The translations under genes were made by a program, and so were the position numbers. 64,000 nt of DNA from Kiritimatiellia bacterium. Its GTDB lineage: Bacteria; Verrucomicrobiota; Kiritimatiellia; JAAZAB01. Shown piece after piece: positions 18,146-32,479 of this stretch; the first letter of the stretch is position 1; every line of letters begins with the position of its first letter. Below the pieces are notes generated by a model. That model had not been told where the DNA came from. It made no database searches and saw only the letters and a list, made by a program, of their open reading frames with translations. The stretch lies in contig JAXGPF010000012.1 of the NCBI GenBank assembly GCA_040767085.1, positions 64,001 through 128,000 on the forward strand, in the 5' to 3' direction.

Positions 18146-18250
18146 TAAAAAAAAACAGAAAACAGTGTTCGTAACAAGTCAAGTGTCCGCTTTTTGTAAC
18201 AAGTGATCTGTCCGATTTGTTATTGTGTGTTGTTGCTCCTGGGGTGAGGA

Positions 18251-18276
18251 TTTTCCTCCCCCGCGGGGGAGGAAAA
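18251..18276. terminator. Perfect 26-bp palindrome after transposase stop, probable bidirectional terminator (second copy at 29170-29195)
   Basis: ttttcctcccccgcgggggaggaaaa equals its own reverse complement, with T/A tails on both sides. Confidence 0.7.
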
Positions 18277-18279
18277 AGT

Positions 18280-19464
18280 TTATGCGACGTCCTCCAGCGA
18301 CGCCGAAATGTTCAACGGTCCTTGGTAGCGGCCAACCACATGCGGGCCATAACGGATGGACACCGTGCCATCGAGGTGCTCGCAGACTTTAACCCGGCAC
18401 TTGGCGAAGCTGAAACGCCATTTTGATGGTCCAATCTGCAAGCGGCGACTCCCGACAGCCACGGTATTGTCATTTTGAACCTCTCGCGCATGCTGCACAC
18501 AGAAAATGCTGTCCAAATCCTGCTCACCGCAAGGCACGAAACACGTTCCTGTTTCCCGCGCCTTCACCTTCATGTTGCGATTGAAGGAAGGCAGAAACTG
18601 TTGTTGAATATAGACGTTGGCCTCGGCCATCGTCCGGATTCCCGCCTGCCTTAATTCCTGCGGCAGGCGCCCTTGCCAGGTCTTAAACATCCGCTCTATT
18701 CGCCCACGTCCCTGGGGGCTATAGCTCGGAATATGTTCGATCCCCAACTGTTGCAACGCCCGTCCAATTTGCGTCAATTGACGCCGGTCCACCGCCCCGC
18801 CTTCTTTGGGCGTATAAAAGAAATGACTGCCACGATCCGTGTACAGACTGCAGAAAACCCCATGTTTAATAATGACTTCTTTCAACCCCTTCATCACCGT
18901 TAATGTCCCTTCCTGGGGCACAAGATAGGCCGTGTAGACTTCGCTGGTGGCATCGTCCATCACCAGGATCAGATCCTGCTTCTGGCCCGCCAGCAGGGGC
19001 AACCAGGCATGGGTGCTGCCATCCACCATCAACATCATCCCCGCCATTGGTCGCCGTTCCCGCTGCTGCCGATGCGGCCCTCGTTTCCGGGCCTTCGCCA
19101 CCAACCCGGCCGTCTGCAAGGCGCTCTTGACCCACTGATAACTGAGCTCGATCCCATGCTCCGCCTGCAGCTTCTCGTGAAAATGCCTCACATTGAAATC
19201 CATGTATTCTTCTCGGTACAACCTCAGCACCTGCTTCACCGTCGCAAGGGGCACGCGCCGCGGCCCCGGTATCTTCCGCCGACGATCCAGCAGCCCGTCG
19301 TAACCATACCGCTCGTAGCGCCCTTTCCAGCGCCGCATGGTCCGGTAGCTCACACCTAGTATCTCCGCCGCCTCCCACCACATTAACCGCCCTTCAATCG
19401 CACGCAAGATCACTTCCTGTACCTTCATTGCCCGCTCCAGTGCTGCCTTCGGATATTCATCCAT
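18280..19464 (-). CDS. DDE transposase (IS1202/ISNCY; HTH + integrase core)
   Basis: HTH (AAEILGVSYRTMRRW), DGSTHAW, DDATS, YTDRGSHF, PQGRGRIERMFKTWQGRL; AAGGGGGG RBS before ATG 19464. Confidence 0.92.
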   Translation of the reverse strand: MDEYPKAALERAMKVQEVILRAIEGRLMWWEAAEILGVSYRTMRRWKGRYERYGYDGLLDRRRKIPGPRRVPLATVKQVLRLYREEYMDFNVRHFHEKLQAEHGIELSYQWVKSALQTAGLVAKARKRGPHRQQRERRPMAGMMLMVDGSTHAWLPLLAGQKQDLILVMDDATSEVYTAYLVPQEGTLTVMKGLKEVIIKHGVFCSLYTDRGSHFFYTPKEGGAVDRRQLTQIGRALQQLGIEHIPSYSPQGRGRIERMFKTWQGRLPQELRQAGIRTMAEANVYIQQQFLPSFNRNMKVKARETGTCFVPCGEQDLDSIFCVQHAREVQNDNTVAVGSRRLQIGPSKWRFSFAKCRVKVCEHLDGTVSIRYGPHVVGRYQGPLNISASLEDVA

Positions 19465-19566
19465 ATAACCCCCCTTTGAATGCACCATCCTGACAGCTTT
19501 AAGCGGACAAATCATTTGTTAATTATGCGGCCAAGTCATTTGTTTACGACAAAAAACAGAAAACAG

Positions 19567-19595
19567 TTGAATTACGGCGGGCTTTTTGGTATTCA
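19567..19595 (+). promoter_or_regulatory. Putative sigma70 promoter of the C1A peptidase operon
   Basis: TTGAAT-N17-TATTCA with TG at the extended -10 position; begins at the first base after the IS target duplication. Confidence 0.5.
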
Positions 19596-19632
19596 AATAA
19601 TGATGCTGCGCGTTGAAGCGCCGTGTCAGTTC

Positions 19633-20463
19633 ATGAATAATAAATATGCGTTAGGTTGGGTGCCGGATGTTCCGGACGTGCGCGACGTTCCATTTGCCGC
19701 CGTTTTTCGCGTGCCGCGCCGGATGCCGGCGGCCATGGATTTGCGCGCGGGCTGCTCCCCGGTGGAAGATCAGGGCGCTTTGGGCTCCTGCACCGCGCAA
19801 GCCCTGGTTGGCGGATTGGAGTATCTGCAGTTGCGCGTTTGGACGCGCCCGCGCCATCCGGCCGGGCCATCCGCGCGTCATCGGGATTTAAGCCGCCTGT
19901 TTTTATACTACAACACGCGCGCGCTGATGGGAACCATTCGTGAGGATTCGGGCGCCATGTTGCGCACCGGGCTGAAATCGCTGCGCAAGACGGGCGTCTG
20001 CGGCGAGGATTTATGGCCCTACCTGATCGAGCGTTTTGCCGAAGCGCCGCCGCGCAAGTGTTACCAGGCGGCGTTGGCTTGCCGGGTCCAGGCCTACCAG
20101 CGCCTGGCCAGTCTGGCGGAAATGAAAGCCTGCCTGGCGGAGGGGTTGCCGTTTGTTTTCGGTTTTGCGGTTTACGAGCATGTGATGGATGCCGCCACCG
20201 CGCGCACCGGCCGGATCCGGCTGCCGCGCCGGCAGGAGCGGATGCTGGGCGGACACGCCGTGCTGGCCGTCGGGTATCGCGACCGGGATCGCACGCTGAT
20301 TTTCCGGAATTCCTGGGGCGCGCCATGGGGCGATGCCGGCTATGGCGAAATCCCGTATGCCTACTTGGAAAGCCGCGAACTTTCCGATGACTTCTGGTGC
20401 ATCCAATCCGCTTGCGGCGCAGGCGGACAGACGCGGCCGGGACGGAGGGTTGCCCGTCCATGA
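19633..20463 (+). CDS. Papain-like C1A cysteine peptidase
   Basis: GWVPDVPD, DQGALGSCTAQA (catalytic Cys), GGHAVLAVGY (His), RNSWG (Asn). Confidence 0.92.
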   Translation: MNNKYALGWVPDVPDVRDVPFAAVFRVPRRMPAAMDLRAGCSPVEDQGALGSCTAQALVGGLEYLQLRVWTRPRHPAGPSARHRDLSRLFLYYNTRALMGTIREDSGAMLRTGLKSLRKTGVCGEDLWPYLIERFAEAPPRKCYQAALACRVQAYQRLASLAEMKACLAEGLPFVFGFAVYEHVMDAATARTGRIRLPRRQERMLGGHAVLAVGYRDRDRTLIFRNSWGAPWGDAGYGEIPYAYLESRELSDDFWCIQSACGAGGQTRPGRRVARP

Positions 20464-21689
20464 TGCTGGTGTTTTCGGGGCTGGTGTTGTTGGCCGTGCT
20501 GCTGGCGCTTTCCGCCTTTTTTTCAAGCGCGGAGACGGCGTTCTTTTCGCTCAATCCGATGCAGATTCACCGGATCCGCCGCGTGCATCCACGAGCGGCC
20601 CGCGAGATTGAGGCGCTGCTGGGCGCGCCCACGCAATTGCTTTCCAGCATCCTGATCGGCAACACCCTGGTCAATATGGCTTGCGCCGCGGTTGGCTATG
20701 GGGTATGCGAATGGTTCTGGCCCGGGCGGGGCACGGCCATCTCGATCCCGGCCATGACCTTTCTCCTGATCGTCTTCGGCGAAATCAGTCCCAAGCGCCT
20801 GGCCGTGCGGTTCCCGGAGAAATTGGCGGTGGTTTACCGCCGGCCTTTGAACATCACCATCTGGCTGATGACACCCCTGCGCCTGTTGATCGAGTGGGTT
20901 ACCAGCCGCCTGCAATCGCATTTCCGCCCGCATCGGCCGGTTTTGACCGGCGAGGAACTGCTGACGGCGGTGGACGTCAGCCATGAAGACGGCGCGTTGA
21001 ATACCGAAGAGCGGCTGATGGTGGACGGCATTATCCGCCTGGAAGACATTCAAGCCAAGGATGTCATGACGCCCCGCGTGGATTTGATCGGGGTGGACCT
21101 GGATGACGATCCCGCCGTGCAGGAACAAACCGCCCGCCGGTCGCATTTCCGGTATCTGCCGGTGTACCAGGACAGCCTGGACGAGATTGTCGGTTTTCTG
21201 GATGTGCCGCGTTATTTGCTCGATCCGGCGCGCGATTTGAACGCCGCCACCATCCCGCATTTTTACGTGCCGGACACCGCCCCGCTGGATACTCTGCTGA
21301 CCAGTTTCCAGCAACAGCGGCGGCGGATCGCCATCGTCATTGACGAATACGGCGGCACGGCCGGGATGATTACCCGCGGCGACATCCTGGATGAAATCGT
21401 GGAGTCGGTGGACAACGAGTTCGGCGGCCAGCCCGCGGGCATCCAAACCATGGGCGATAATTGCTGGCTGATTCACGGCAATATCAGCCTGGAGGACATC
21501 AATTACGAACTTGACCTGGAACTGGAAGCCGAGGGCGCCGACCGCCTGGCCGGCTGGGTGACGGCCCGGGCGGAACATATTCCCAGGGTCGGCGAAGTCG
21601 TGGCGGCCCAGGGTTGCCGGGTGACGGTCCGCCAGATGAAAAAACACCGCATCACCATGCTGATGCTTGAAAAAATCGAATCCGATTGA
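20460..21689 (+). CDS. CNNM/HlyC-CorC family Mg/Co transporter (DUF21 + CBS + CorC)
   Basis: SAFFSSAETA, GEISPK, VMTPR, DEYGGTAG, C-terminal CorC domain; ATGA overlap with upstream gene. Confidence 0.9.
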   Translation: MMLVFSGLVLLAVLLALSAFFSSAETAFFSLNPMQIHRIRRVHPRAAREIEALLGAPTQLLSSILIGNTLVNMACAAVGYGVCEWFWPGRGTAISIPAMTFLLIVFGEISPKRLAVRFPEKLAVVYRRPLNITIWLMTPLRLLIEWVTSRLQSHFRPHRPVLTGEELLTAVDVSHEDGALNTEERLMVDGIIRLEDIQAKDVMTPRVDLIGVDLDDDPAVQEQTARRSHFRYLPVYQDSLDEIVGFLDVPRYLLDPARDLNAATIPHFYVPDTAPLDTLLTSFQQQRRRIAIVIDEYGGTAGMITRGDILDEIVESVDNEFGGQPAGIQTMGDNCWLIHGNISLEDINYELDLELEAEGADRLAGWVTARAEHIPRVGEVVAAQGCRVTVRQMKKHRITMLMLEKIESD

Positions 21690-21698
21690 CGCACCGGT

Positions 21699-22685
21699 AT
21701 GTTCATCCTTGAAATATTTCTGCTGCTTCTGTGCCTGGTGTGGGCCGCGTTCTTTGCCGGCATTGAAACTGGTGTGATTTCCATCAACCATTTAAAATTG
21801 CGCCACCTGGCGGAGGAGGAAGAAGACCGTCGCGCTCAATTGCTCGAACGCTTTCTCGCCAATCCCGACCGCCTGCTGGGCACCACGCTGGTAGGTGTCA
21901 ACATCTGTATGGTGGGAGCATCGGTCCTGGGCGCGCGCCTGGGGCATGGCCTGCCGGGCCGCGGCGGCGAGATTTTTACGGAAGCCCTGACGACCATGGT
22001 GGTTTTGATTTGCTGCGAGTATCTGCCCAAGGCGTGGCTTCAAAGCAATCCCATCGCGCGCTGCCGGCCGTTCGCCGGCGTATTGTGGGGCGCTTCGCTG
22101 GTGTTGAAGCCGCTGGCGGATTTTTTCAACTGGTTGACGATGTTTTTGCTGCGCGGCCTGCCCGCGGGGAAGGCGCAAGGCCTCCCGGTGGTCACGCGCG
22201 AAGAAATTGACATCCTGGCGAAAGAAAGCGCCGAACACGGCAATCTGACGCCCAAGCAGCGCATTATGATCCATCGCGTGGTGGACCTGGCCGGCAAAAA
22301 CGCCGCGCAGATCATGGCGCCCCGGGAGCGCATGGTGTTCATTGACAGCCAGGCAACGGCGGAGGAGTTTTTAACCCGGTCGCGCGGGTCCAACTTCACC
22401 CGGTTGCCGGTGTATGACCGGACGCGCGGAGTGTTTGTCGGCATCGCCAATCTGTTCGATGTGCTGGCCGCTCCGGCTGCCCGCTATGCCGAGCCGATTA
22501 CCCGGTTTATGCGGCCGCCGCAATTCCTGCGCGATACGACGCCCCTGACGGAAGTCCTGCCCCGGCTGCGCCGTTCGCGCCAGCCGCTGGCCCTGGTGGC
22601 TAACGCCCGGACGGAAGTCATCGGCCTGCTGACCACGGAAGACGTCCTGCGCCTGATTATCGGCGTGGATGATCCGGCGCAATAA
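21699..22685 (+). CDS. CNNM/CBS domain protein (DUF21 + CBS, no CorC domain)
   Basis: FFAGIETG, EYLPK, FTRLPVY, GLLTTEDVL. Confidence 0.85.
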   Translation: MFILEIFLLLLCLVWAAFFAGIETGVISINHLKLRHLAEEEEDRRAQLLERFLANPDRLLGTTLVGVNICMVGASVLGARLGHGLPGRGGEIFTEALTTMVVLICCEYLPKAWLQSNPIARCRPFAGVLWGASLVLKPLADFFNWLTMFLLRGLPAGKAQGLPVVTREEIDILAKESAEHGNLTPKQRIMIHRVVDLAGKNAAQIMAPRERMVFIDSQATAEEFLTRSRGSNFTRLPVYDRTRGVFVGIANLFDVLAAPAARYAEPITRFMRPPQFLRDTTPLTEVLPRLRRSRQPLALVANARTEVIGLLTTEDVLRLIIGVDDPAQ

Positions 22686-22710
22686 GCGGCCCGGCTGCGC
22701 GCGGCCGGTT

Positions 22711-24414
22711 TCAACCCGCGCCGGCCTTGCCGGATTCCCGGGCCCAGCCGTCCCGCAGGGTCGCCGTCCGGTTAAAGACTGGCGCCCCCGGCCGGCTGTC
22801 CGCCGGATCGGTGAAAAAGTACCCCAGGCGTTCAAACTGGTAATGCGCGCCCGGCCCGGCCTGGGCCAGCCCCGGTTCGCACATGGCGGTAACCTTCTGC
22901 AGCGAAGCGGGATTCAGTACCCGGCGGAAATCTCCGCCGGCGGCGGCTTCGTCGGCGGGATCGGGCACGGTGAACAGCCGATCATAAAGCCGGGCTTCCA
23001 GCGGACGGGCGTGGAGCTGGGAAACCCAATGCAGGGTGGCCTTGACCTTTTTATTGCGCTTGGCGCCGGCGCCGCTGCGGGAATCGGGATCGTAAACGCA
23101 ATGCACTTCCGCCGGCTCGCCGGTGGCGGGGTCTTTCACCACGCCGGTGCACTCGACGCAATAGCCGTAACGCAGCCGCACCGCGCGGCCCGGCGCCAGC
23201 CGGTAAAATCCGGACGGCGGATTTTCCATGAAATCATCCCGTTCGATCAGCAGTTCCCGGCTGAACGGCACCGGCCGGACGCCCTGGGCGGGGTCTTCCG
23301 GGTTGTTGACGGCCTCCATGTTTTCCACCCGGCCGGCGGGGTAGTTCTCGATCACGAGGCGCAGCGGGCGCAGCACGGCCATGGCGCGCGCGGCGCGGCG
23401 GTTCAAATCGTCGCGCAGGCAATGTTCCAGCAGCGCCACGTCCGTCAGACTGTTGAATTTGGTGACGCCGATGCGCCGGCAGAATTCCCGGATGGCGGCC
23501 GGGGTGTAGCCGCGCCGGCGCAGTCCGGCCAGGGTCGGCATACGCGGATCGTCCCAACCCTGCACGAGGCCCTCCTGGACGAGCAGCTGCAGCTTGCGTT
23601 TGCTCATCAGCGTATATGACAGGTTCAACCGGGCGAATTCGATCTGCTGGGGATGGCAGGGGGTGGCGAGGGCGTCCAGAATCCAGTCATAAAGCGGGCG
23701 GTGGACTTCGAATTCGAGGGTGCAGATGGAGTGGGTGATGCCCTCGACGGCATCGGACAGGCAGTGGGCGAAATCGTACATGGGGTAAATGCACCAGGTG
23801 TCGCCGGTGCGGTGATGCGGCGCGCGGCGGATGCGGTAAATCACCGGATCGCGCAGGTGCAGATTGGGGGAGGCCATGTCGATTTTCGCGCGCAGAACGT
23901 ACTGGCCGTCCGCGAATTCGCCGGCCTTCATCCGGCGGAACAAGTCCAGGCTTTCCGCCGGCGGCCGGTCGCGCCACGGACTGGGCCGGCCGGGCTGGGT
24001 CGGCACGCCGCGGTAGGCTTTGAATTCCTCGGCCGTCAGGGTGCAGACATAGGCCCGGCCGAGTTGGATCAGGCGTTCGGCGCAATCATACAGGTGCTGG
24101 TAATAGTCGGAGGCGAAATGCAGGTGTTCCCCCCAGTCGAATCCCAGCCACCGGATGTCCGCCTGGATGGCGTCCACGTATTCCACGTCCTCGGTGGCGG
24201 GATTGGTGTCGTCAAACCGCAGGTGGCAGCGTCCGCGGAATTCCTCCGCCAGGCCGAAATTCATGCAGATGGACTTGGCATGGCCGATGTGCAGGTACCC
24301 GTTGGGTTCGGGCGGGAAGCGCGTGACCACCTGCCCGCCATGCTTGTTGGCGCGCAAATCGGCGGCGATGATGTCTTTGATAAAATGGCTGGCGGTGTCA
24401 GTGTCAGTGGTCAT
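22711..24414 (-). CDS. glnS: Glutamine--tRNA ligase
   Basis: [41 protein letters not shown]. Confidence 0.96.
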
Positions 24415-24478
24415 GGTAAAGGGTGTCTCTTTCAAAAGAGTTCAGTGTTGGATGGGCGTTTGATTGCGCCGGCGCCCG

Positions 24479-26005
24479 TTAATCCGCGGCGCCGTAAGCG
24501 GCGCGGTAGGATTTTTCCAGGTCTTTCAGTTGTTTGCCCTTGAGCGCGATCCCCTGGGTTTCCAGGGTTTCCAGCGCGTAATGCAGGCGGCGCAGGGTCA
24601 GGTCGCGGCCCAGCAGAGCCATGGCGTCGAACGCCGGGAGCGCCGCCGGCGCACCGGCCAGCGCCGCGTAGAAAACAGGCATGATCTGCTTCAGTTTCAT
24701 TTTTTCGATTTCAGCGATCCGGTTGAAAACGCCGCGGATGGCGTCCGTGTTCCAGGCGGGCGGCTTTTCCAGTTCCCACTGGGCGGTTTTCAGCAGGCGC
24801 GCCACGCCGGGCCCGTCCAAGCCGCCGGAACTTTGCACCAGCAGGGCCGGGGGGTAATCCAGGCGGTCGGCAAACAGGAAGGCGGCCTGGGGCACAAAAT
24901 CGGCCAACTGGTTCAGGCGCGGTTGGGCCAGGGGAATGATGTTCTGCCAATAGGCATCGTTCAACAGCCAGGCTTGCAGGCGCTGCCATAGTGCCGCCGG
25001 CGCCAGGCTGCGCAGGTAGCGGCCGTTGAAGTGCTGGAGTTTCTGGAAATCGAAAACCGGTCCGCCCAGGCTGATGCGGTCAATCTCAAAATGCTCCGCC
25101 ATTTCCGCGAGCGTGAAAATTTCGCGGCCGTCGGCGAAGCTGTAAGCCATGAGCCCCAGGTAATTGATCAGCGCTTCCGGCAGGAAGCCCGCCTGCCGGT
25201 AATACAGGATGCTGGTGGGATTGCGGCGCTTGGAGAGCTTGGACTTGTCCGGGTTGCGCAGGAGGGGAAGATGGGCGAATTCCGGCGGCGTCCAGCCGAA
25301 GGCCTGGTAAAGCAGGATATGCTTCGGCAGCGAGCTCAGCCATTCTTCGCCGCGGATGACATGGGTGATGCCCATCAAATGATCGTCCACGACATTGGCC
25401 AGGTGGTAAGTCGGGTAGCCGTCCGATTTGAGCAGCACCTGGTGGTCCACCTTGGCCCAGGGAATGCGGATTTCGCCCCGCAGGCGATCGCGCATCGCGC
25501 ATTCGCCGTCCGCCGGGACGCGCAGGCGGAGGACATGCGGTTCCCCCGCCGACAGCCGGCGCGCGGCATCCGCTGGCGCCAGCCGGGCGCACAATCCGTC
25601 GTATCCGGCGCAGTCGGCGCCGGCCTGGCTCCGCCGCAGTTCCGCCAGGCGCTCCGCGGTGCAGAAACAGGGGTAGGCCGCGCCCGCGGCCAGCAGCCGC
25701 CGGCCGTGTTCCAGGTAAATCCGCGTGCGTTCGCTCTGGCGGTAGGGCGCGTGCGGTCCGCCGCAGTCGGGGCCTTCATCCCAGGGAATGCCCAGCCAGC
25801 GGAGCGATGCCAGAATGGCCTGTTCCGATTCGGCGGTCGAACGCGCCTGGTCGGTGTCTTCCACGCGCAGGATGAACTGGCCGCCATGCCGTTTGGCGAA
25901 AGCGTAGTTAAACAGGGCCATGAAAGCCGTGCCGATATGGGGCGCGCCGGTGGGCGAAGGCGCCACGCGGGTCCGGACAGTTGGCTGGTTGTTCTGGGTA
26001 TGCAT
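24479..26005 (-). CDS. gltX: Glutamate--tRNA ligase
   Basis: APSPTGAPHIG, RVEDTD, PYRQSER, PTYHLANVVDDH, KLSKR. Confidence 0.96.
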   Translation of the reverse strand: MHTQNNQPTVRTRVAPSPTGAPHIGTAFMALFNYAFAKRHGGQFILRVEDTDQARSTAESEQAILASLRWLGIPWDEGPDCGGPHAPYRQSERTRIYLEHGRRLLAAGAAYPCFCTAERLAELRRSQAGADCAGYDGLCARLAPADAARRLSAGEPHVLRLRVPADGECAMRDRLRGEIRIPWAKVDHQVLLKSDGYPTYHLANVVDDHLMGITHVIRGEEWLSSLPKHILLYQAFGWTPPEFAHLPLLRNPDKSKLSKRRNPTSILYYRQAGFLPEALINYLGLMAYSFADGREIFTLAEMAEHFEIDRISLGGPVFDFQKLQHFNGRYLRSLAPAALWQRLQAWLLNDAYWQNIIPLAQPRLNQLADFVPQAAFLFADRLDYPPALLVQSSGGLDGPGVARLLKTAQWELEKPPAWNTDAIRGVFNRIAEIEKMKLKQIMPVFYAALAGAPAALPAFDAMALLGRDLTLRRLHYALETLETQGIALKGKQLKDLEKSYRAAYGAAD

Positions 26006-26015
26006 GAGACGCGGT

Positions 26016-26057
26016 AAAAAAACAGCGCCGCCGGCGTAATCCGCTCCGGCGACGCTG
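26016..26057 (-). terminator. Putative intrinsic terminator just upstream of gltX
   Basis: Minus strand: cagcgtcgccgg-loop-ccggcggcgctg followed by T7. Confidence 0.55.
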
Positions 26058-26104
26058 GGCCAATGCCAGTTAAATCATAAGAGCCGGCGGCGGCTCGGAG
26101 CGCG

Positions 26105-26584
26105 CTATTTCACCGGGGCGGCCGGCGCGGGCGCGGCTTCTTCCTTGACCGCGGGCGCGGGTTCGACAGGCTTGGCGGCTTCCTGGGGCGCTGCCGTTTC
26201 CGCGGCCGGCGCGGGCGCCGCGGCGGCCGCCGGGGCAACTTCCTCGGGTTTGGCGGCCGCGATGGTTTCCACGTTCTTCACCGTGATCCAGCGCCGGTTC
26301 TGATCGTCAAAGCTGAAAGTGCCGGAAACGCGGACCTTGGCCCCGTCCATGGTTTCCAGGGGTTTGCTGGCTTCATCGAGGGTGATCTCATAACTGGTGA
26401 CAACCAGGCGGATGGCGCTTACCTTGCCGTCCTTGTCCTTGACAACGTTGACCACCCCGCTTTTCCGCACATCAAAGGGAATCCGCTGCTCGGCCCCGCC
26501 GGCGGCGGCTTCCTGCGCGCGGACCGCGGCGCAGCTTATCAGGATGGCAGTGGCGGCGCTGACGATTTTTGCGGATGCACGCAT
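26105..26584 (-). CDS. Hypothetical secreted protein with Ala/Pro/Glu-rich tail
   Basis: AAGGAG RBS, signal peptide ending AVRA-Q, beta-rich core, low-complexity C-terminus. Confidence 0.7.
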   Translation of the reverse strand: MRASAKIVSAATAILISCAAVRAQEAAAGGAEQRIPFDVRKSGVVNVVKDKDGKVSAIRLVVTSYEITLDEASKPLETMDGAKVRVSGTFSFDDQNRRWITVKNVETIAAAKPEEVAPAAAAAPAPAAETAAPQEAAKPVEPAPAVKEEAAPAPAAPVK

Positions 26585-26728
26585 GGGAGACTCCTTAATA
26601 AAGTTAATGGTGCGGTTGTCTGTGCGATCAGGCCGGAATCCCGGCAAAATCAGCAGACAGTATAACCGATTTGCCCGCCGCGTCAATCAGATTGCACCGG
26701 TTTTTTGCAAGGCGTCCGCCCGGGGCGT

Positions 26729-26770
26729 AAAAAAGGCATAGCCGGAATTCCGGGCCATTCCGGCTATGCC
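26729..26770 (-). terminator. Intrinsic terminator of the oxidative-stress operon
   Basis: 14-bp stem ggcatagccggaat/attccggctatgcc followed by a T-run on the minus strand. Confidence 0.75.
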
Positions 26771-26794
26771 GATAATCAGCGATTGATGCCGGGC

Positions 26795-27481
26795 TTACTT
26801 CCCGTGCGGACATTTTTTCAGGCACAGAAACCAATCCAGGCACTTGACATCCGCCCCGGCCTGGTGCATGCGTTCCTTGGCCGCGCCGCAGGATCCGGGC
26901 GGCGGCACGATCACGTCCTCGCCGGGCACCCAGTTGGCGGGCGTCGCGATCTTGTGCTGATCGGAATGCTGCATGGCCACCAGCAGGCGTTTGACTTCTT
27001 CCATGTTGCGCCCGTTGGAAAGCGGGTAGTAAAGGATGGCGCGCACCTTGCCGGTGGGATCGATCATGAACACCGCCCGCACCGCCTGGGTGTTGCTCGC
27101 GCCGGGCTGAAGCATGCCGAAGGCTTTGGAAACTTCCATGGTCAGGTCGCTGATGACCGGGAAATTGACCTCGATGTTCTTCATGCCCTTGTATTCGATT
27201 TTTTCCTTGATGGTGCGCAGCCAGGCGATGTGGCTGTAGGTGCTGTCAATCGAAAGGCCCAGCAGCTTGCAGTTGAGCTTCTCGAATTCCGGCTCCATGG
27301 CGGCGAAAGTCATGAACTCCGTCGTGCAAACCGGCGTGAAATCCGCGGGATGGGAGAAAAATATCACCCACTTGCCCTTGTAATCTTCCGGGAAGTTGAT
27401 CATCCCCTGCGTGGTTTCCGCCTTGAAGGACGGGGCCTGCTCGCCGATCAGCGGCAGCTTAACGGGCGTTGCTTCAGTCAT
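26795..27481 (-). CDS. Peroxiredoxin (Prx6 subfamily)
   Basis: FSHPADFTPVCTTE, YYPLSNGRN, TPANW, C-terminal CLDWFLC. Confidence 0.93.
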   Translation of the reverse strand: MTEATPVKLPLIGEQAPSFKAETTQGMINFPEDYKGKWVIFFSHPADFTPVCTTEFMTFAAMEPEFEKLNCKLLGLSIDSTYSHIAWLRTIKEKIEYKGMKNIEVNFPVISDLTMEVSKAFGMLQPGASNTQAVRAVFMIDPTGKVRAILYYPLSNGRNMEEVKRLLVAMQHSDQHKIATPANWVPGEDVIVPPPGSCGAAKERMHQAGADVKCLDWFLCLKKCPHGK

Positions 27482-27526
27482 AGTCGTGATTCCTTGGTTT
27501 ATTCCAAAGTGTTTTAAAACGGACGG

Positions 27527-28030
27527 TTACTTGGTGTGCATCTGCAGCATGGTTTCCAGGTCTTCCATTTCAGCCTGAAGGTCTTCCTCATGCTCGACCT
27601 CGTCCTGCAATATCTGGAGGACGGTATTGTAAGTTACCGGATCCTTGCCCATGGTCAGGTTCAACAACTTGCGGTAGGTCATAATCGCGCATTGCTCGCC
27701 GGCGATATTCTGCTCCAGCACTTTTTTGACGAACGGATCATCCGGCGCTTCGTAGCCGCAATTGGTATGCTTGTACCAATCTGCCGGCTTGGTGATCGGC
27801 GTCCCGCCCAGCTGCAGGATGCGCATAGCCAGCATGTCGGCATGCCGGAGCTCGTCGGTGGCGTGCTGGGTCAATTCCGCGATGACGGCTTCCTTCATCG
27901 GGCCCTTGACGACCTTGGCGCCGATCCAGTACTGGTAATAAGCCAGCCATTCATCGGCAAAGGCCTTGTTCAGCACCTGCACCAGCTGCGTGACATCCAT
28001 GTCAACTATTTCTCTGCCCTTGGTTCCCAT
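27527..28030 (-). CDS. Ferritin-like (DPSL/bacterioferritin-related) protein
   Basis: ADEWLAYYQYW, DELRHA, RILQLGG, EQCAI, DEVEHEED diiron motifs. Confidence 0.88.
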   Translation of the reverse strand: MGTKGREIVDMDVTQLVQVLNKAFADEWLAYYQYWIGAKVVKGPMKEAVIAELTQHATDELRHADMLAMRILQLGGTPITKPADWYKHTNCGYEAPDDPFVKKVLEQNIAGEQCAIMTYRKLLNLTMGKDPVTYNTVLQILQDEVEHEEDLQAEMEDLETMLQMHTK

Positions 28031-28034
28031 GGTA

Positions 28035-28193
28035 TTATCCTTTCCTTGATGTGTTTTCTTTGACCGCGATCATCGGTTTTTTGCAACAGACCAACTGGCC
28101 GCCGCCGACTTCCAGCACCTGGACGACATTGCCGCAGATTGCGCAGCGCCAGACCTCGCCGACTTTTTTGATTGCTTCAAGTTTGCATGCCAT
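28035..28193 (-). CDS. Stand-alone desulforedoxin (52 aa; not in ORF track)
   Basis: Manual translation: MACKLEAIKKVGEVWRCAICGNVVQVLEVGGGQLVCCKKPMIAVKENTSRKG; CxxC...CC Fe-binding motif; AAAGGA RBS. Confidence 0.88.
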   Translation of the reverse strand: MACKLEAIKKVGEVWRCAICGNVVQVLEVGGGQLVCCKKPMIAVKENTSRKG

Positions 28194-28279
28194 CAGTCAA
28201 TGATCCTTTCAATGCTGCTTGAACGCCGAGGTTGAGTCTCGCCATCGTCACCTCCCCGCTTCCTTTTATTTGGCATTTA

Positions 28280-28308
28280 ATACTAATTAATAATAATTAT
28301 TATTACAA
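28280..28308 (-). promoter_or_regulatory. Sigma70 promoter overlapped by a PerR/Fur-like operator
   Basis: Minus strand TTGTAA-N17-TAGTAT; perfect 18-bp palindrome taataataattattatta at 28288-28305 in the spacer. Confidence 0.75.
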
Positions 28309-28346
28309 GTAAAATTCTTGCGCCCCGGGGAAAACGGCTTTTTTTG

Positions 28347-28793
28347 CTAGCCTGTCGGCAGTTCCTGGCAATGGCGGCACTGTCCGCGAAATTCGATGTG
28401 CACCCGTTCGATCCTGCCGATCGAGGCCAGTTCCGAGGGTATCGCGAAGCGATCCAGAATGGCGGAGTTCAAATCGATGATCTTGCCGCAATGCGCACAG
28501 ATGAAATGGTGGTGGCAATCGGTATTGGCGTCGTACCGGGCCCGGTCGTTAATGGTGGACACCCGGAAAACATTGCCGTTTTCCTCGAAGATCCGCAAGG
28601 TCCTGTAAACCGTATCCAGCGAAATCGCCGGCAGACGCTTGCGCACCCTCTGATAAATGGTTTCCGCATCGGGATGCTCCGTCGTCAGGGATAATTCCCG
28701 CAGGATTTCCCGGCGCTGGCTGGTGGCTTTGAGGCCTTTTTGGCGGCACGCTTTAATAAAATGCTCTACGCGTTTTTTAGTGATTTTTTTCAC
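28347..28793 (-). CDS. Fur-family regulator, PerR-like
   Basis: TSQRREIL, HPDAETIY, TVYRTL, HHHFICAHCG, CRHC Zn motifs; adjacent to peroxide-defence genes. Start uncertain (28793 GTG or 28832). Confidence 0.88.
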   Translation of the reverse strand: MKKITKKRVEHFIKACRQKGLKATSQRREILRELSLTTEHPDAETIYQRVRKRLPAISLDTVYRTLRIFEENGNVFRVSTINDRARYDANTDCHHHFICAHCGKIIDLNSAILDRFAIPSELASIGRIERVHIEFRGQCRHCQELPTG

Positions 28794-28895
28794 AATAAGC
28801 GTTGGATAACAATAATTTAAATGTTTAAACAATATGATATATCAAAAAAACCATTTGTCAATAATCCAATTTAAAAAGTCCTGGCCGGGGTGGCT

Positions 28896-28946
28896 GTGCC
28901 CGCCATAGTTCGCCGCGGCGAACGACGGCCGGGAAGCCGGCCCTCC
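28896..28946. repeat. Palindromic repeat unit (gtgcccgccatag...cgacggc family) fused to a GGAG-type REP-like hairpin
   Basis: Shares arms with 39092-39123; inner perfect palindrome ttcgccgcggcgaa; followed by cggccgggaagccggccctcc. Confidence 0.55.
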
Positions 28947-29084
28947 AAGAACATAAAAACCACAGGTTTTTAGAGGGGCGGATTTACACCCCAACCGTTC
29001 TGTAAGGACTTTTGAAATTAACTCCAATGTCAATTTCAGGTTGCCGCCGCACGTATGTCGCGCGCGTGTCGGGGCGCGCGCGCG

Positions 29085-30470
29085 TGTTCGTAACAAGTCA
29101 AGTGTCCGCTTTTTGTAACAAGTGATCTGTCCGATTTGTTATTGTGTGTTGTTGCTCCTGGGGTGAGGATTTTCCTCCCCCGCGGGGGAGGAAAAAGTTT
29201 ATGCGACGTCCTCCAGCGACGCCGAAATGTTCAACGGTCCTTGGTAGCGGCCAACCACATGCGGGCCATAACGGATGGACACCGTGCCATCGAGGTGCTC
29301 GCAGACTTTAACCCGGCACTTGGCGAAGCTGAAACGCCATTTTGATGGTCCAATCTGCAAGCGGCGACTCCCGACAGCCACGGTATTGTCATTTTGAACC
29401 TCTCGCGCATGCTGCACACAGAAAATGCTGTCCAAATCCTGCTCACCGCAAGGCACGAAACACGTTCCTGTTTCCCGCGCCTTCACCTTCATGTTGCGAT
29501 TGAAGGAAGGCAGAAACTGTTGTTGAATATAGACGTTGGCCTCGGCCATCGTCCGGATTCCCGCCTGCCTTAATTCCTGCGGCAGGCGCCCTTGCCAGGT
29601 CTTAAACATCCGCTCTATTCGCCCACGTCCCTGGGGGCTATAGCTCGGAATATGTTCGATCCCCAACTGTTGCAACGCCCGTCCAATTTGCGTCAATTGA
29701 CGCCGGTCCACCGCCCCGCCTTCTTTGGGCGTATAAAAGAAATGACTGCCACGATCCGTGTACAGACTGCAGAAAACCCCATGTTTAATAATGACTTCTT
29801 TCAACCCCTTCATCACCGTTAATGTCCCTTCCTGGGGCACAAGATAGGCCGTGTAGACTTCGCTGGTGGCATCGTCCATCACCAGGATCAGATCCTGCTT
29901 CTGGCCCGCCAGCAGGGGCAACCAGGCATGGGTGCTGCCATCCACCATCAACATCATCCCCGCCATTGGTCGCCGTTCCCGCTGCTGCCGATGCGGCCCT
30001 CGTTTCCGGGCCTTCGCCACCAACCCGGCCGTCTGCAAGGCGCTCTTGACCCACTGATAACTGAGCTCGATCCCATGCTCCGCCTGCAGCTTCTCGTGAA
30101 AATGCCTCACATTGAAATCCATGTATTCTTCTCGGTACAACCTCAGCACCTGCTTCACCGTCGCAAGGGGCACGCGCCGCGGCCCCGGTATCTTCCGCCG
30201 ACGATCCAGCAGCCCGTCGTAACCATACCGCTCGTAGCGCCCTTTCCAGCGCCGCATGGTCCGGTAGCTCACACCTAGTATCTCCGCCGCCTCCCACCAC
30301 ATTAACCGCCCTTCAATCGCACGCAAGATCACTTCCTGTACCTTCATTGCCCGCTCCAGTGCTGCCTTCGGATATTCATCCATATAACCCCCCTTTGAAT
30401 GCACCATCCTGACAGCTTTAAGCGGACAAATCATTTGTTAATTATGCGGCCAAGTCATTTGTTTACGACA
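29085..30470 (-). mobile_element. IS1202/ISNCY-family insertion sequence, copy 2 (1386 bp), 16-bp target duplication tcggggcgcgcgcgcg
   Basis: Same ends and translated ORFs as copy 1; DR at 29069-29084 and 30471-30486. Confidence 0.92.
29199..30383 (-). CDS. DDE transposase, identical to copy 1
   Basis: Identical translation in ORF track. Confidence 0.92.
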   Translation of the reverse strand: MDEYPKAALERAMKVQEVILRAIEGRLMWWEAAEILGVSYRTMRRWKGRYERYGYDGLLDRRRKIPGPRRVPLATVKQVLRLYREEYMDFNVRHFHEKLQAEHGIELSYQWVKSALQTAGLVAKARKRGPHRQQRERRPMAGMMLMVDGSTHAWLPLLAGQKQDLILVMDDATSEVYTAYLVPQEGTLTVMKGLKEVIIKHGVFCSLYTDRGSHFFYTPKEGGAVDRRQLTQIGRALQQLGIEHIPSYSPQGRGRIERMFKTWQGRLPQELRQAGIRTMAEANVYIQQQFLPSFNRNMKVKARETGTCFVPCGEQDLDSIFCVQHAREVQNDNTVAVGSRRLQIGPSKWRFSFAKCRVKVCEHLDGTVSIRYGPHVVGRYQGPLNISASLEDVA

Positions 30471-30486
30471 TCGGGGCGCGCGCGCG

Positions 30487-30515
30487 TTGACATTTGCATG
30501 CTTTTATGTTACACA
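30487..30515 (+). promoter_or_regulatory. Putative sigma70 promoter of nadE
   Basis: Consensus TTGACA-N17-TACACA with TG extension; begins at the first base after the IS target duplication. Confidence 0.6.
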
Positions 30516-30535: not shown

Positions 30536-32479
30536 ATGCAACCAGACAGCCAAAGCCATAATCCCGCAACCGATCCCGCAACCTTGCGGGTCTGTCCGGC
30601 GCAGATCGAAGTCACGCCGGGGCGCCCGGTGGAGAATACCGGGCGTATGCTGGCCGTCATCGAACAGGCGCGCTCCGCCGGGGCGGACCTGGTGGTTTTT
30701 CCCGAGCTGGCCATTTCCGGGTACCTGCTGGGCGATACCTGGGAACAGCCGGCTTTTCTGCGGGAATGCGCCGCCTGCGGCGAACGCGTCCGGGAAGCAG
30801 CGCGCGGACTGACCGTCATTTTCGGCAATGTAGCGGTGGATTGGCGCAAACGCAACGAAGACGGCCGGCCCCGGAAGTATAACGCTTTGTTTACGGCGTC
30901 GGAAGGCGCATTCCACGGGCCGGCGGGGGGGGCTTATCCGTTTGTCATCAAGACGCTCCTGCCTAATTACCGCGAATTTGACGATAGCCGCCATTTTTTC
31001 GATCTGCGTAAACTGGCCCAGGAATCCGGTGTGGCGCCGGCGGCCTTGGTTGCCCCGGTCTCCGCGGGGCGGGTGAAAATCGGGTGCGTCTTGTGCGAGG
31101 ATGCCTGGGACGCGGATTATCATTTCGCTCCTTTGGCGGCCTTGCGCGCACATGCGCCGGATTTATACGTGAATTGCAGTTGTTCGCCGTTCACGCGGGG
31201 CAAGGCCGGCAAACGCCGGCGCGTTTTTGCCGCCCAGGCGGTCCGGTTGGGCCGGCCATTGATTTGCGTCAACGCGCTCGGCATGCAGAACATCGGCAAG
31301 ACGGTCTATGTTTTTGACGGCGCCTCCGCGGTCTATGACGGCGCGGAACGGGAGATTCTTTTGCCGTCTTTTGAGTCCGCCGCCCCGGTGTTGGATATAC
31401 CGCTGGACGGCCGGCCGTTCGGCGCGCCCGCGCCGGCGGGCGGCGGCGATGACCTGCCGGAGATTTTCCAGGCGCTGCTGGCCGGCGCCCGGCGCTTTCT
31501 GCAGCGCTGCGGGATTGAGCGCGTCGTCGTCGGCCTTTCCGGCGGCATCGATTCGGCCGTGGCGGCCGCGCTTTATCGCCAGGTGCTGCCCCCGGAACGG
31601 CTGCTGGCAGTCAACCTGCCTTCCCGGCACAATTCCCTCACCACCATCAACCTGGCGCGCCAGACGGCCGCCAACCTCGGCTGCCTCTACGCGGAAATAC
31701 CGATTGACGAAAGCGTGGAAATGACGGTGCGCCAGTTAAACGGTCTGCGCGTGGCCAGCGTGGATGGCGCCTTGCGCCGGGAATTGCACCTGACGGAAGG
31801 CGGGGTGGAAAACATCCAGGCGCGGGACCGGTCGGCGCGCGTGTTGGCGGCCGTGGCGGCGGCTTTCGGCGGCGCTTTCACCTGCAATGCCAACAAGACT
31901 GAGGCCGCCGTGGGTTATTCCACCTTGTACGGCGACCTGGGCGGATTCCTGGCGCTGCTGGGCGATCTTTGGAAGGGTGAAGTTTACCGGCTGGGCCGGC
32001 ACCTCAACCGCGAGGTTTACCGCCGGGACGTCATCCCGGAGGCCTGCTTTACTTTAAAACCTTCGGCGGAACTCAGCGCCGCACAGGACGTGGACCGGGG
32101 CCTGGGCGATCCCCTGCATTACCCCTACCATGACTGCCTGTTCGCCAGTTGGGTGGAACGCTGGGACCGGGCCGGGCCGGAGGAAAATCTGGAATGGTAC
32201 CTGGCCGGGGCGCTCGAGCGGCAACTGGGATATGCCGGTTCCGTGCGGGATATCTTTTCCGATGCCGCCGCGTTCGTGGCCGATTTGGAATACTGGTGGC
32301 GGCAATTCCAGGGACTGGGCCTGGCCAAGCGCATCCAGGCGCCGCCGGTGATGGCGGTCACCCGGCGCGCCTTTGGTTTCGATTTCCGGGAGGCCCAGAA
32401 CGGGCCCTGGTTCAGCGCCCGTTACGAGGAACTCAAGCGGCAGGCGCTGTCAGCCAATGCCGCCGCGCCGCGGCCGTAA
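30536..32479 (+). CDS. nadE: Glutamine-dependent NAD+ synthetase
   Basis: Nitrilase domain (FPELAISGY, KTLLPNY, LCEDAW) plus GLSGGIDS, ENIQAR, NKTE, GYSTLYGD, PSAEL. Confidence 0.95.
   Translation: MQPDSQSHNPATDPATLRVCPAQIEVTPGRPVENTGRMLAVIEQARSAGADLVVFPELAISGYLLGDTWEQPAFLRECAACGERVREAARGLTVIFGNVAVDWRKRNEDGRPRKYNALFTASEGAFHGPAGGAYPFVIKTLLPNYREFDDSRHFFDLRKLAQESGVAPAALVAPVSAGRVKIGCVLCEDAWDADYHFAPLAALRAHAPDLYVNCSCSPFTRGKAGKRRRVFAAQAVRLGRPLICVNALGMQNIGKTVYVFDGASAVYDGAEREILLPSFESAAPVLDIPLDGRPFGAPAPAGGGDDLPEIFQALLAGARRFLQRCGIERVVVGLSGGIDSAVAAALYRQVLPPERLLAVNLPSRHNSLTTINLARQTAANLGCLYAEIPIDESVEMTVRQLNGLRVASVDGALRRELHLTEGGVENIQARDRSARVLAAVAAAFGGAFTCNANKTEAAVGYSTLYGDLGGFLALLGDLWKGEVYRLGRHLNREVYRRDVIPEACFTLKPSAELSAAQDVDRGLGDPLHYPYHDCLFASWVERWDRAGPEENLEWYLAGALERQLGYAGSVRDIFSDAAAFVADLEYWWRQFQGLGLAKRIQAPPVMAVTRRAFGFDFREAQNGPWFSARYEELKRQALSANAAAPRP

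Follow-up and report, generated by a model that had tools for sequence, protein, structure and literature searches.

Two copies of one insertion sequence (IS) whose target duplications are unrelated in sequence, yet which are each followed by what reads as the -35 box of a promoter, raise the question of whether the element seeks out promoters and what might guide it there. The two copies lie in a 64,000-nucleotide stretch of a Kiritimatiellia bacterium genome (assembly GCA_040767085.1, contig JAXGPF010000012.1, positions 64,001 to 128,000), which is called the window below and whose own numbering is used. An earlier note on this DNA had described two identical 1386-bp copies with unrelated duplications of 15 and 16 bp and flush TTGA hexamers, and all of its coordinates and statements on this point hold. 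The base next to the right-hand repeat starts TTGAAT at copy 1 (19567-19572) and TTGACA at copy 2 (30487-30492). After a further 17 bp there follow TATTCA (19590-19595) and TACACA (30510-30515), and at both sites TG sits one base upstream of this second hexamer. The open reading frame (ORF) of the transposase runs away from the neighboring host gene in both cases, a Peptidase_C1 gene at copy 1 and an NAD synthase gene at copy 2. On the evidence presented here, it is very probable that this IS inserts at promoters in a targeted and oriented manner.

The host assembly (4.08 Mb, 61% G+C, 28 contigs) was searched for further copies. It contains 31 of full length, and because 28 of these are 100% identical, they point to a recent burst. 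In keeping with the ISfinder convention, the end adjoining the transposase start is designated the left inverted repeat (IRL) and the far end the right inverted repeat (IRR). Clean target duplications enclose 22 of the 31 copies, with lengths of 15 bp in 6, 16 bp in 14 and 17 bp in 2. Among the remaining copies, two have a duplication that is mismatched at one outer base, five have no repeat, one carries a tandem repeat of its terminal 15 bases, followed by a 16-bp repeat, and one, which is 95% identical, has a decayed repeat. The five copies without a repeat fit recombination between copies, which is also how the accessible text of the family papers explains copies that lack duplications (10.1101/2022.12.17.520857; PMC10132070). 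In 27 of the 31 copies a TTG starts 15-17 bp from the IRL end, flush with the target duplication, and it is also present, at a shifted distance, in the end-duplicated copy and in the decayed one. On the IRR side, TTG is found at the same offsets in 2 of the 31. Judged by eye and with no calculation made, the duplication length of the host-genome copies (15, 16 or 17 bp) shows no evident link to the length of the promoter spacer.

Two copies depart from this pattern. The reversed copy at C24:37368 lies in a divergent intergenic region and has its repeat flush with TTGCCA-N17-CATGAT on the IRR side, with an ORF of 537 amino acids (aa) downstream of it. The copy at C22:475973 is decayed, with seven in-frame stops and no repeat, and adjoins an ORF that starts in the middle of a patatin domain. 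Two further loci are peculiar in their flanks. In the end-duplicated copy (G000:C27:142265-143650, L003) the tandem repeat of the last 15 IS bases is followed by the 16-bp target repeat and then by TTGACA; it could have been left by a second insertion into the end of a first copy, with a stagger of 15 bp, and by subsequent recombination. The copies G000:C1:8893-10278 and G000:C28:105706-107091 have the same IRL-side flank (repeat and TTGACT onward) and different IRR-side flanks, which could reflect a segmental duplication, a population variant within the assembly or an assembly artefact.

Within the three-offset window, TTG is expected in 5.6% of cases in intergenic DNA; it was observed at 27 of 30 independent sites (binomial p = 6e-31). 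For a sequence logo, the 28 distinct sites of the host genome were aligned on this TTG. Of these, 14 have A and 12 have C at position +3; +4 is C in 17, +5 is A in 13, +20 and +21 are T and G in 16 each, +23 is T in 19 and +24 is A in 22. Upstream of the TTG, positions -9 to -4 are rich in A/T, corresponding to about -44 to -39 of a promoter. As controls we used 15,047 intergenic TTG sites outside IS copies. TA at a spacing of 17 bp was found at 18/28 occupied sites and 5.1% of the controls (p = 4e-17), and at a spacing of 16-18 bp at 24/28 and 13.9% (p = 3e-17). TG at the extended -10 position was present at 12/28 sites against 6.3% (p = 5e-8), and TTGAC at 11/28 against 7.2% (p = 2e-6). Read as sequence, the flank logo is of the sigma70 type, with TTG[A/C]CA followed by TG and TA at 17-bp spacing; this TTGACA-N17-TA pattern is not dif-like.

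The same picture emerged from related elements. A scan of species-representative genomes yielded 80 loci with transposases 55-66% identical to the one studied here, which by their record titles are mostly in metagenome-assembled genomes (MAGs) of Acidobacteriota, with single MAGs of Verrucomicrobiota, Methylomirabilota and Myxococcales. The sole requirements for repeat detection were TG...CA ends and an exact repeat in the flanks, and 58 of the 80 loci passed. After filtering for ends and length, by which six were dropped (L082, L094, L101, L105, L109 and L120), there were 52 distinct sites, with repeats of 16 bp in 39, 17 bp in 11 and 15 and 18 bp in one each. A TTG flush with the IRL-side repeat is present at 35/52 sites and one flush with the IRR-side repeat at 3/52. 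Taken singly, the three positions past the IRL-side repeat are T in 45, T in 39 and G in 47 sites, and a C stands just before the TTG in 30. Further columns (+23 T in 29, +24 A in 35, +28 T in 34) complete the full TTGACA-N17-TAnnnT pattern, and TAnnnT at 16-18 bp occurs on the IRL side at 32/52 sites and on the IRR side at 1/52 (p = 1e-11). At the final -10 position, the commonest base in the IS-occupied promoters of the host genome is A; T is normal in the sites of these relatives (34/52). Even among the 17 sites that lack TTG, 10 have TAnnnT at the right distance, often with TG before the -10 box, while their first hexamers read, for example, TGGCGC, TCGCCA or GTGCGA. This argues that the register is set by the promoter as a whole. 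In the 22 loci without a detected repeat, the IRL end could be located in 18, and 14 of these have TTG at 15-17 bp. At L073, two tandem IS copies come with the same 16-bp repeat three times, followed by TTGACT, which by this arrangement reads as one promoter hit twice at identical bonds.

To explore more distant relatives, six representatives were aligned and metagenome contigs were scanned, which gave 80 loci with transposases 30-40% identical (median 35%). Short contigs predominate among these, and flanks of different copies may be mixed in them; the ends, called by their inverted repeats in 62 of the 80 loci, are noisier. On the IRL side, TTG occurred at offsets 16-17 in 17/182 position tests compared with 2.4% elsewhere (p = 9e-6), and on the IRR side in 20/159 compared with 2.2% elsewhere (p = 7e-9); offset 16 accounts for 18 loci. 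Where the flank is long enough, TAnnnT follows in 7/14 sites on the IRL side and 13/20 on the IRR side. Which end faces the promoter depends on the type of IS: in types whose IRR tip is TGTCAA, the promoter lies on the IRR side in 14/22 and on the IRL side in 4/26, and in the other tip types it lies on the IRL side in 12/32 and on the IRR side in 6/31. To judge by these flanks, the rule that one end lies 15-17 bp upstream of a -35 box runs deep in the subgroup, and the orientation rule is lineage-specific. No duplications were found around a 34%-identical copy in a genome of the same family (L032) or a 46%-identical copy on a Mesorhizobium plasmid (L148). In all, the 31 copies of the host genome and about 130 sites of relatives show the logo that the earlier note had predicted for insertion flush with the -35 box. 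Its second claim, a fixed orientation, is borne out by most copies in the host genome and by the closer relatives; one host copy is reversed, and distant relatives can present the other end.

The genes next to the insertions and the corresponding sites in other genomes were then considered. The downstream gene was taken to be the longest ORF on the forward strand with a start no more than 450 bp away, and Pfam matches were accepted at E <= 1e-5. A co-oriented downstream ORF with such a match was found for 23 of the 30 copies tested. The products include glutamate dehydrogenase, transketolase, phosphoenolpyruvate (PEP) carboxykinase, NAD synthase, a class III aminotransferase, FGAM synthase and AraC/IclR regulators. 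In four genomes of the same genus, whose assemblies are fragmented, no copy of the IS was found, and these provide IS-free versions of the two window sites. Upstream of the peptidase gene, TTGAAT-N17-TAATTA is kept in G002 and G004. Upstream of the NAD synthase gene, TTGACA-N17-TACACA is found in G002 and G003 and TTGACA-N17-TACATA in G001; across these three genomes the hexamers stay while both the duplicated segment and the spacer differ, a phylogenetic footprint that supports promoter function. Since they are conserved in three other species, the TACACA and TACATA boxes with their TG extension are suggested to be genuine -10 elements in this genus. Of the features of sigma70-type promoters, hexamers, spacing, TG extension, co-oriented genes and cross-species conservation were all seen at the target sites; in the host genome most of these sites lack the T that ends the -10 box.

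Several observations weigh against reading these sites as sigma70 promoters that are recognized through polymerase. TAnnnT, for whose enrichment the earlier note had proposed a test, is enriched in the relatives as described; at 16-18 bp in the host genome it is not significantly so (4/28 vs 5.2%, p = 0.055). The final T of the -10 box is present in 3/18 host sites with TA at 17-bp spacing vs 229/512 (45%) of the TTG[AC]...TA controls (p = 0.03); canonical TTGAC...TA sites have it in 79/125. Neither window site is called by a strict consensus promoter scanner, for which this final T is obligatory. The intergenic controls were built on a crude ORF-based gene call, and sites that share a genome, or that stem from sister ISs, are only partly independent. 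A search of sequencing runs with the PEP carboxykinase site returned three contig-only runs with shares of 0.06-0.24, which cannot show transcription starts. The promoter-facing end differs between IS types, and therefore there is no single fixed contact between one end and polymerase across the group. Finally, a transposase that reads a bipartite motif would yield a similar logo, and the contact with polymerase is purely a deduction.

With these points taken into account, the best explanation overall, which we hold with moderate confidence, is that a long-duplication IS of the IS1202 family integrates at sigma70-type promoters. The geometry of the cuts can be deduced from the insertion products. 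One target strand is cut at the -36/-35 bond, right against the TTG of the -35 box, and the other 15-17 bp (about 1.5 helical turns) upstream, giving a 5' stagger. The strand cut flush with the -35 box is joined to the far end of the IS, which is the IRR in this element. After repair, the IS comes to lie at about -51, and a copy of -51 to -36 together with the whole core promoter stays with the gene. The earlier note had likewise proposed that roughly -51 to -36 is duplicated and the promoter left intact, and this agrees with the 15-17 bp repeats and with the core promoters retained at the sites. With the IRL facing the promoter, transposase and host gene are transcribed divergently. The site upstream of a promoter would serve the element as a safe harbor in which genes are left unbroken.

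As to what guides the element, we lean slightly towards promoter-bound RNA polymerase. The transpososome would dock on promoter DNA that is covered by the holoenzyme, with sigma region 4 at the -35 box and perhaps the C-terminal domain of the alpha subunit (alpha-CTD) nearby, and the transposase would probably not merely read TTG. We infer positioning by the holoenzyme because the enriched features span the whole sigma70 footprint, because sites with a poor -35 box hold their register through the -10 box, and because the sister ISAba32 subgroup has, by the accessible accounts, the same geometry against XerC. A predicted complex of the transposase with residues 570-660 (region 4) of the host RpoD scored 0.00 and is uninformative either way.

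Among the alternatives, direct readout of DNA fares best, although we consider it less likely than docking on polymerase. Here the transposase itself, through its helix-turn-helix or its C-terminal beta domain, would recognize a promoter-like sequence and cut without a host protein; the motif could be TTGAC plus TA about 23 bp away, or the -35 box alone with bendable A/T-rich DNA upstream. Such a mechanism would account for TTG being by far the strongest signal, for the C that is favored right before it in the relatives, and for the host-genome -10 signal, which is merely TA and not the full TAnnnT. It could also draw on the IS type whose promoter-facing tip is the complement of TTGACA, since the protein may bind such a hexamer. 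What speaks against it is that the majority of TTG-less sites in the relatives keep a correctly spaced TAnnnT, often preceded by TG, and that A/T patch, -35 box, TG and -10 box are the features of the sigma70 holoenzyme over about 45 bp, which is large for one transposase. In addition, the preferred end flips between IS types with the target logo unchanged.

A far less probable explanation is that insertion is random or weakly biased and that selection has left copies in harmless intergenic places. All copies but one do lie outside recognizable genes, and insertions in genes have surely been purged. However, selection gives no reason to favor the bond between -36 and -35, and it does not sit well with base-pair-precise placement, near-uniform orientation, a burst recent enough to leave 28 identical copies, or tandem double insertions such as L073 that share identical cuts. 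Moreover, the TA of the -10 box is found at 5.1% of intergenic TTG sites but at 64% of the occupied ones. Together with the TTG offset counts and the binomial test, these controls effectively refute selection alone. That the IS itself supplies an outward -35 box and forms a hybrid promoter with host DNA has a negligible probability: many ISs do carry such boxes, and the IRR end here has TTGACT 11 nt from its tip, but between the IS and the TTG hexamer stands the duplication, whose sequence is different in each copy, the IS ends of relatives begin with TGT even where the next base is not T, and the same hexamers at the IS-free sites of the same genus refute the idea. We also considered a pseudo-end model, in which TTGACA serves as a surrogate for an IS tip ending in ACA. 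This predicts a cut at -30/-29 with ACA as the most conserved part, and was rejected because the cut falls at -36/-35 instead and conservation centers on TTG.

The features of the two window loci are compiled in Table 1.

Table 1. Features of the two IS loci and adjoining host genes (positions in the window)
Feature	Position	Strand	Basis
Target duplication of copy 1, left repeat, 15 bp	18151..18165	.	direct reading and comparison of genome copies
IS copy 1, 1386 bp, ends 5'-TGT...ACA-3'	18166..19551	-	100% identical to copy 2 and 26 other genome copies
IRR end of copy 1, two roughly 20-bp repeats of type GTAACAAGT-A--TGTCCG	18166..18215	+	direct reading
Transposase gene of copy 1, 411-aa ORF	18280..19515	-	ORF list; NCBIfam match
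IRL end of copy 1, promoter-facing, two subterminal repeats as at IRR	19503..19551	-	direct reading
Target duplication of copy 1, right repeat, 15 bp, about -50 to -36 of the promoter	19552..19566	.	
Predicted promoter of Peptidase_C1 gene, TTGAAT-N17-TATTCA, TG at 19587-19588	19567..19595	+	direct reading; TTGAAT-N17-TAATTA in G002, G004
Papain-family (Peptidase_C1) gene, 19633 being the first in-frame ATG past the promoter	19633..20463	+	Pfam PF00112, E = 2e-11
Target duplication of copy 2, left repeat, 16 bp	29069..29084	.	
IS copy 2, 1386 bp, ends 5'-TGT...ACA-3'	29085..30470	-	100% identical to copy 1
Transposase ORF of copy 2	29199-30434	-	
Target duplication of copy 2, right repeat, 16 bp	30471..30486	.	
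Predicted promoter of NAD synthase gene, TTGACA, 17 bp ending TGt, TACACA	30487..30515	+	direct reading; TTGACA-N17-TACACA or TACATA in G001, G002, G003
Glutamine-dependent NAD synthase gene, CN_hydrolase and NAD_synthase domains	30536..32479	+	Pfam

The transposase matches the NCBIfam model NF033594 (transpos_ISNCY_2, ISNCY family) with 352.4 bits at a cut-off of 250, and scores under the cut-offs of the IS481, IS630 and IS3 models. Pfam and NCBIfam assign the helix-turn-helix domains HTH_28, HTH_32 and HTH_23 and a transposase of the ISNCY/IS481 type. In tblastn searches it showed 30-33% identity to plasmid transposase genes annotated as IS1202-like ISEsa1 and ISNCY-like ISKpn21. The true start is likely the ATG at 19467, which would give a protein of 395 aa, because homologues have 394-397 aa and align from residue 17-18; a G-rich ribosome-binding stretch precedes this ATG. 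An AlphaFold model, calculated from a 12-row alignment, is of modest confidence (mean predicted local distance difference test, pLDDT, 69). In this prediction, residues 25-135 form two helical DNA-binding domains, residues about 160-315 an RNase-H-like core and residues 339-397 a C-terminal beta domain of six strands. The nearest solved folds are IstA of IS21, TnsB of the CRISPR-associated transposon (CAST) and Tn7, MuA and retroviral integrases. Enzymes of this kind usually leave the choice of target to a partner protein. The IS encodes one ORF and no partner protein.

The terminal inverted repeats begin with 5'-TGT at both ends (TGTTCGTAAC... and TGTCGTAAAC...), as they do in the relatives. 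Two repeats of about 20 bp per end suggest that four protomers may be bound. Directly past the transposase stop there is a perfect G+C-rich palindrome of 18 nt (CCTCCCCCG/CGGGGGAGG) at 18256-18273 and 29175-29192. It is bordered by runs of T and A, the terminator scanner makes no call there, and it may form a hairpin at the transcript end or be bound by a protein.

Some distant relatives have IS ends that resemble their target. At L185 and L221, the IRR tip of one IS copy, which reads as the complement of TTGACA, has a second copy at a distance of 16 bp; IS ends with such a tip may themselves act as targets. Among loci L180-L224, the IS types with the IRR tip TGTCAA read TTGACA outwards and frequently (8/28) have TGTAAT as their IRL tip. 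The duplication length of 16-17 bp is at the same time that of an ideal promoter spacer. A circular intermediate with TGTCAA and TGTAAT tips and a 16-17-bp spacer would carry a near-consensus junction promoter driving the transposase. For the IS of the window a junction promoter was rejected: it has CGAACA as IRR tip and TGTCGT as IRL tip, and with 16 bp added its inner TTGACT ends up too distant from the IRL.

The rule supplies a target for a widespread IS group (transposase identity 30-100%) for which the accessible text of the family papers states none. It covers mostly MAGs with Acidobacteriota titles, single ones of Verrucomicrobiota, Methylomirabilota and Myxococcales, and metagenome contigs, and it would explain both the long duplications and where they are placed. 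The flush junction would mark promoters at single-base resolution in uncultured bacteria, so that each insertion could be read as a promoter annotation. Being compact and encoding a single protein, the element is also a candidate for delivering DNA in a set orientation to positions just upstream of promoters.

By its transposase, its ends and its duplications, the element belongs to the IS1202 family (ISNCY/IS1202 group), and more precisely to the long-duplication ISTde1 type. The subgroups of this family have duplications of 5-6, 15-17 and 27-28 bp (10.1101/2022.12.17.520857), and the ISTde1 subgroup includes ISTde1, ISCARN53/62/63 and ISHahy13 (Siguier et al., 10.1101/2022.12.17.520857; Microb Genom 2023, PMC10132070). 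Our element shares with it a size of about 1.3-1.5 kb, one DDE transposase only, of about 400 aa and with helix-turn-helix domains at its N-terminus, 5'-TGT ends and duplications of 15-17 bp; its placement in the subgroup follows from this description and the duplication length. It differs from the published accounts of the subgroup, as far as their accessible text goes, in the precise promoter target seen here: in that text, neither family paper states a target for the ISTde1 subgroup, and only the 5-6-bp subgroup is given one (10.1101/2022.12.17.520857; PMC10132070). Full-text literature searches and term searches of both papers likewise returned no report of promoter targeting in the IS1202 family.

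The subgroup with a known target is that of ISAba32 and ISAjo2. In ISAba32-type elements the IRL abuts the XerC arm of a dif-like site and the duplication has 5-6 bp (10.1101/2022.12.17.520857; PMC10132070). So far as these accounts can be compared, both kinds of element are oriented, place the IRL at a site bound by a host protein and have the duplication flush with this site, and the transposase described here is related to ISKpn21- and ISEsa1-type proteins at 30-33% identity. The two kinds differ in duplication length (15-17 bp here, 5-6 bp there) and in target (promoters here, XerC/D sites there), and by comparing them one could study, in a natural system, how an enzyme of the integrase type acquires a new target. 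A wider and more tentative proposal, to which we give somewhat less than even odds, is that the whole 15-17-bp subgroup is tethered to RNA polymerase-sigma70, as a third independently evolved lineage of promoter-homing DDE elements, and that the IS1202 family generally docks on DNA-bound host proteins. These would be XerC in one subgroup and the sigma70 holoenzyme in another, with one cut flush with the site of the protein and the second 0.5, 1.5 or 2.5 helical turns away, corresponding to duplications of 5-6, 15-17 and 27-28 bp. The three lengths differ by about one helical turn, which suggests a single active-site geometry.

The earlier note knew of no description of such a safe-harbor strategy at promoters, but the strategy has been described. 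According to the accessible text of Guerillot et al. 2014 (PMC3942029), TnGBS, ISLre2 and 13 ISs of the ISKra4 group have one end 15-17 bp (13-17 bp) upstream of a sigmaA -35 box, with an orientation that is conserved in most and with both orientations where the ends are nearly symmetric. Their duplications are 8-9 bp long and their transposases Mutator-like (p-MULT), and for these elements a contact with RNA polymerase has been proposed by analogy with Ty3, along with the safe-harbor logic (PMC3942029). The element described here resembles them in having an oriented end 13-17 bp upstream of the -35 box, so that the behavior is alike and the ancestry is not. A further source on TnGBS is reportedly the work of Brochet et al. 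from 2009. The transposase here is retroviral-integrase-like (of the IstA/TnsB/MuA type), unlike the Mutator-like enzymes of those elements, and promoter homing has accordingly arisen in a superfamily unrelated to that of TnGBS and ISLre2. The duplication also fills the whole gap, with one cut flush with the -35 box, in contrast to the 8-9 bp recorded for the others. As in Ty3, which interacts with TFIIIB (cited via PMC3942029), an integrase-type enzyme would sit at a fixed bond beside a transcription initiation complex. The tethering of this IS to polymerase is deduced only. Ty3-type integrase-tethered retroelements are, moreover, eukaryotic, move through RNA and are associated with a different polymerase. 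Promoter homing as such is thus known, and what is new is the same behavior in an unrelated transposase superfamily with a different geometry of the cuts.

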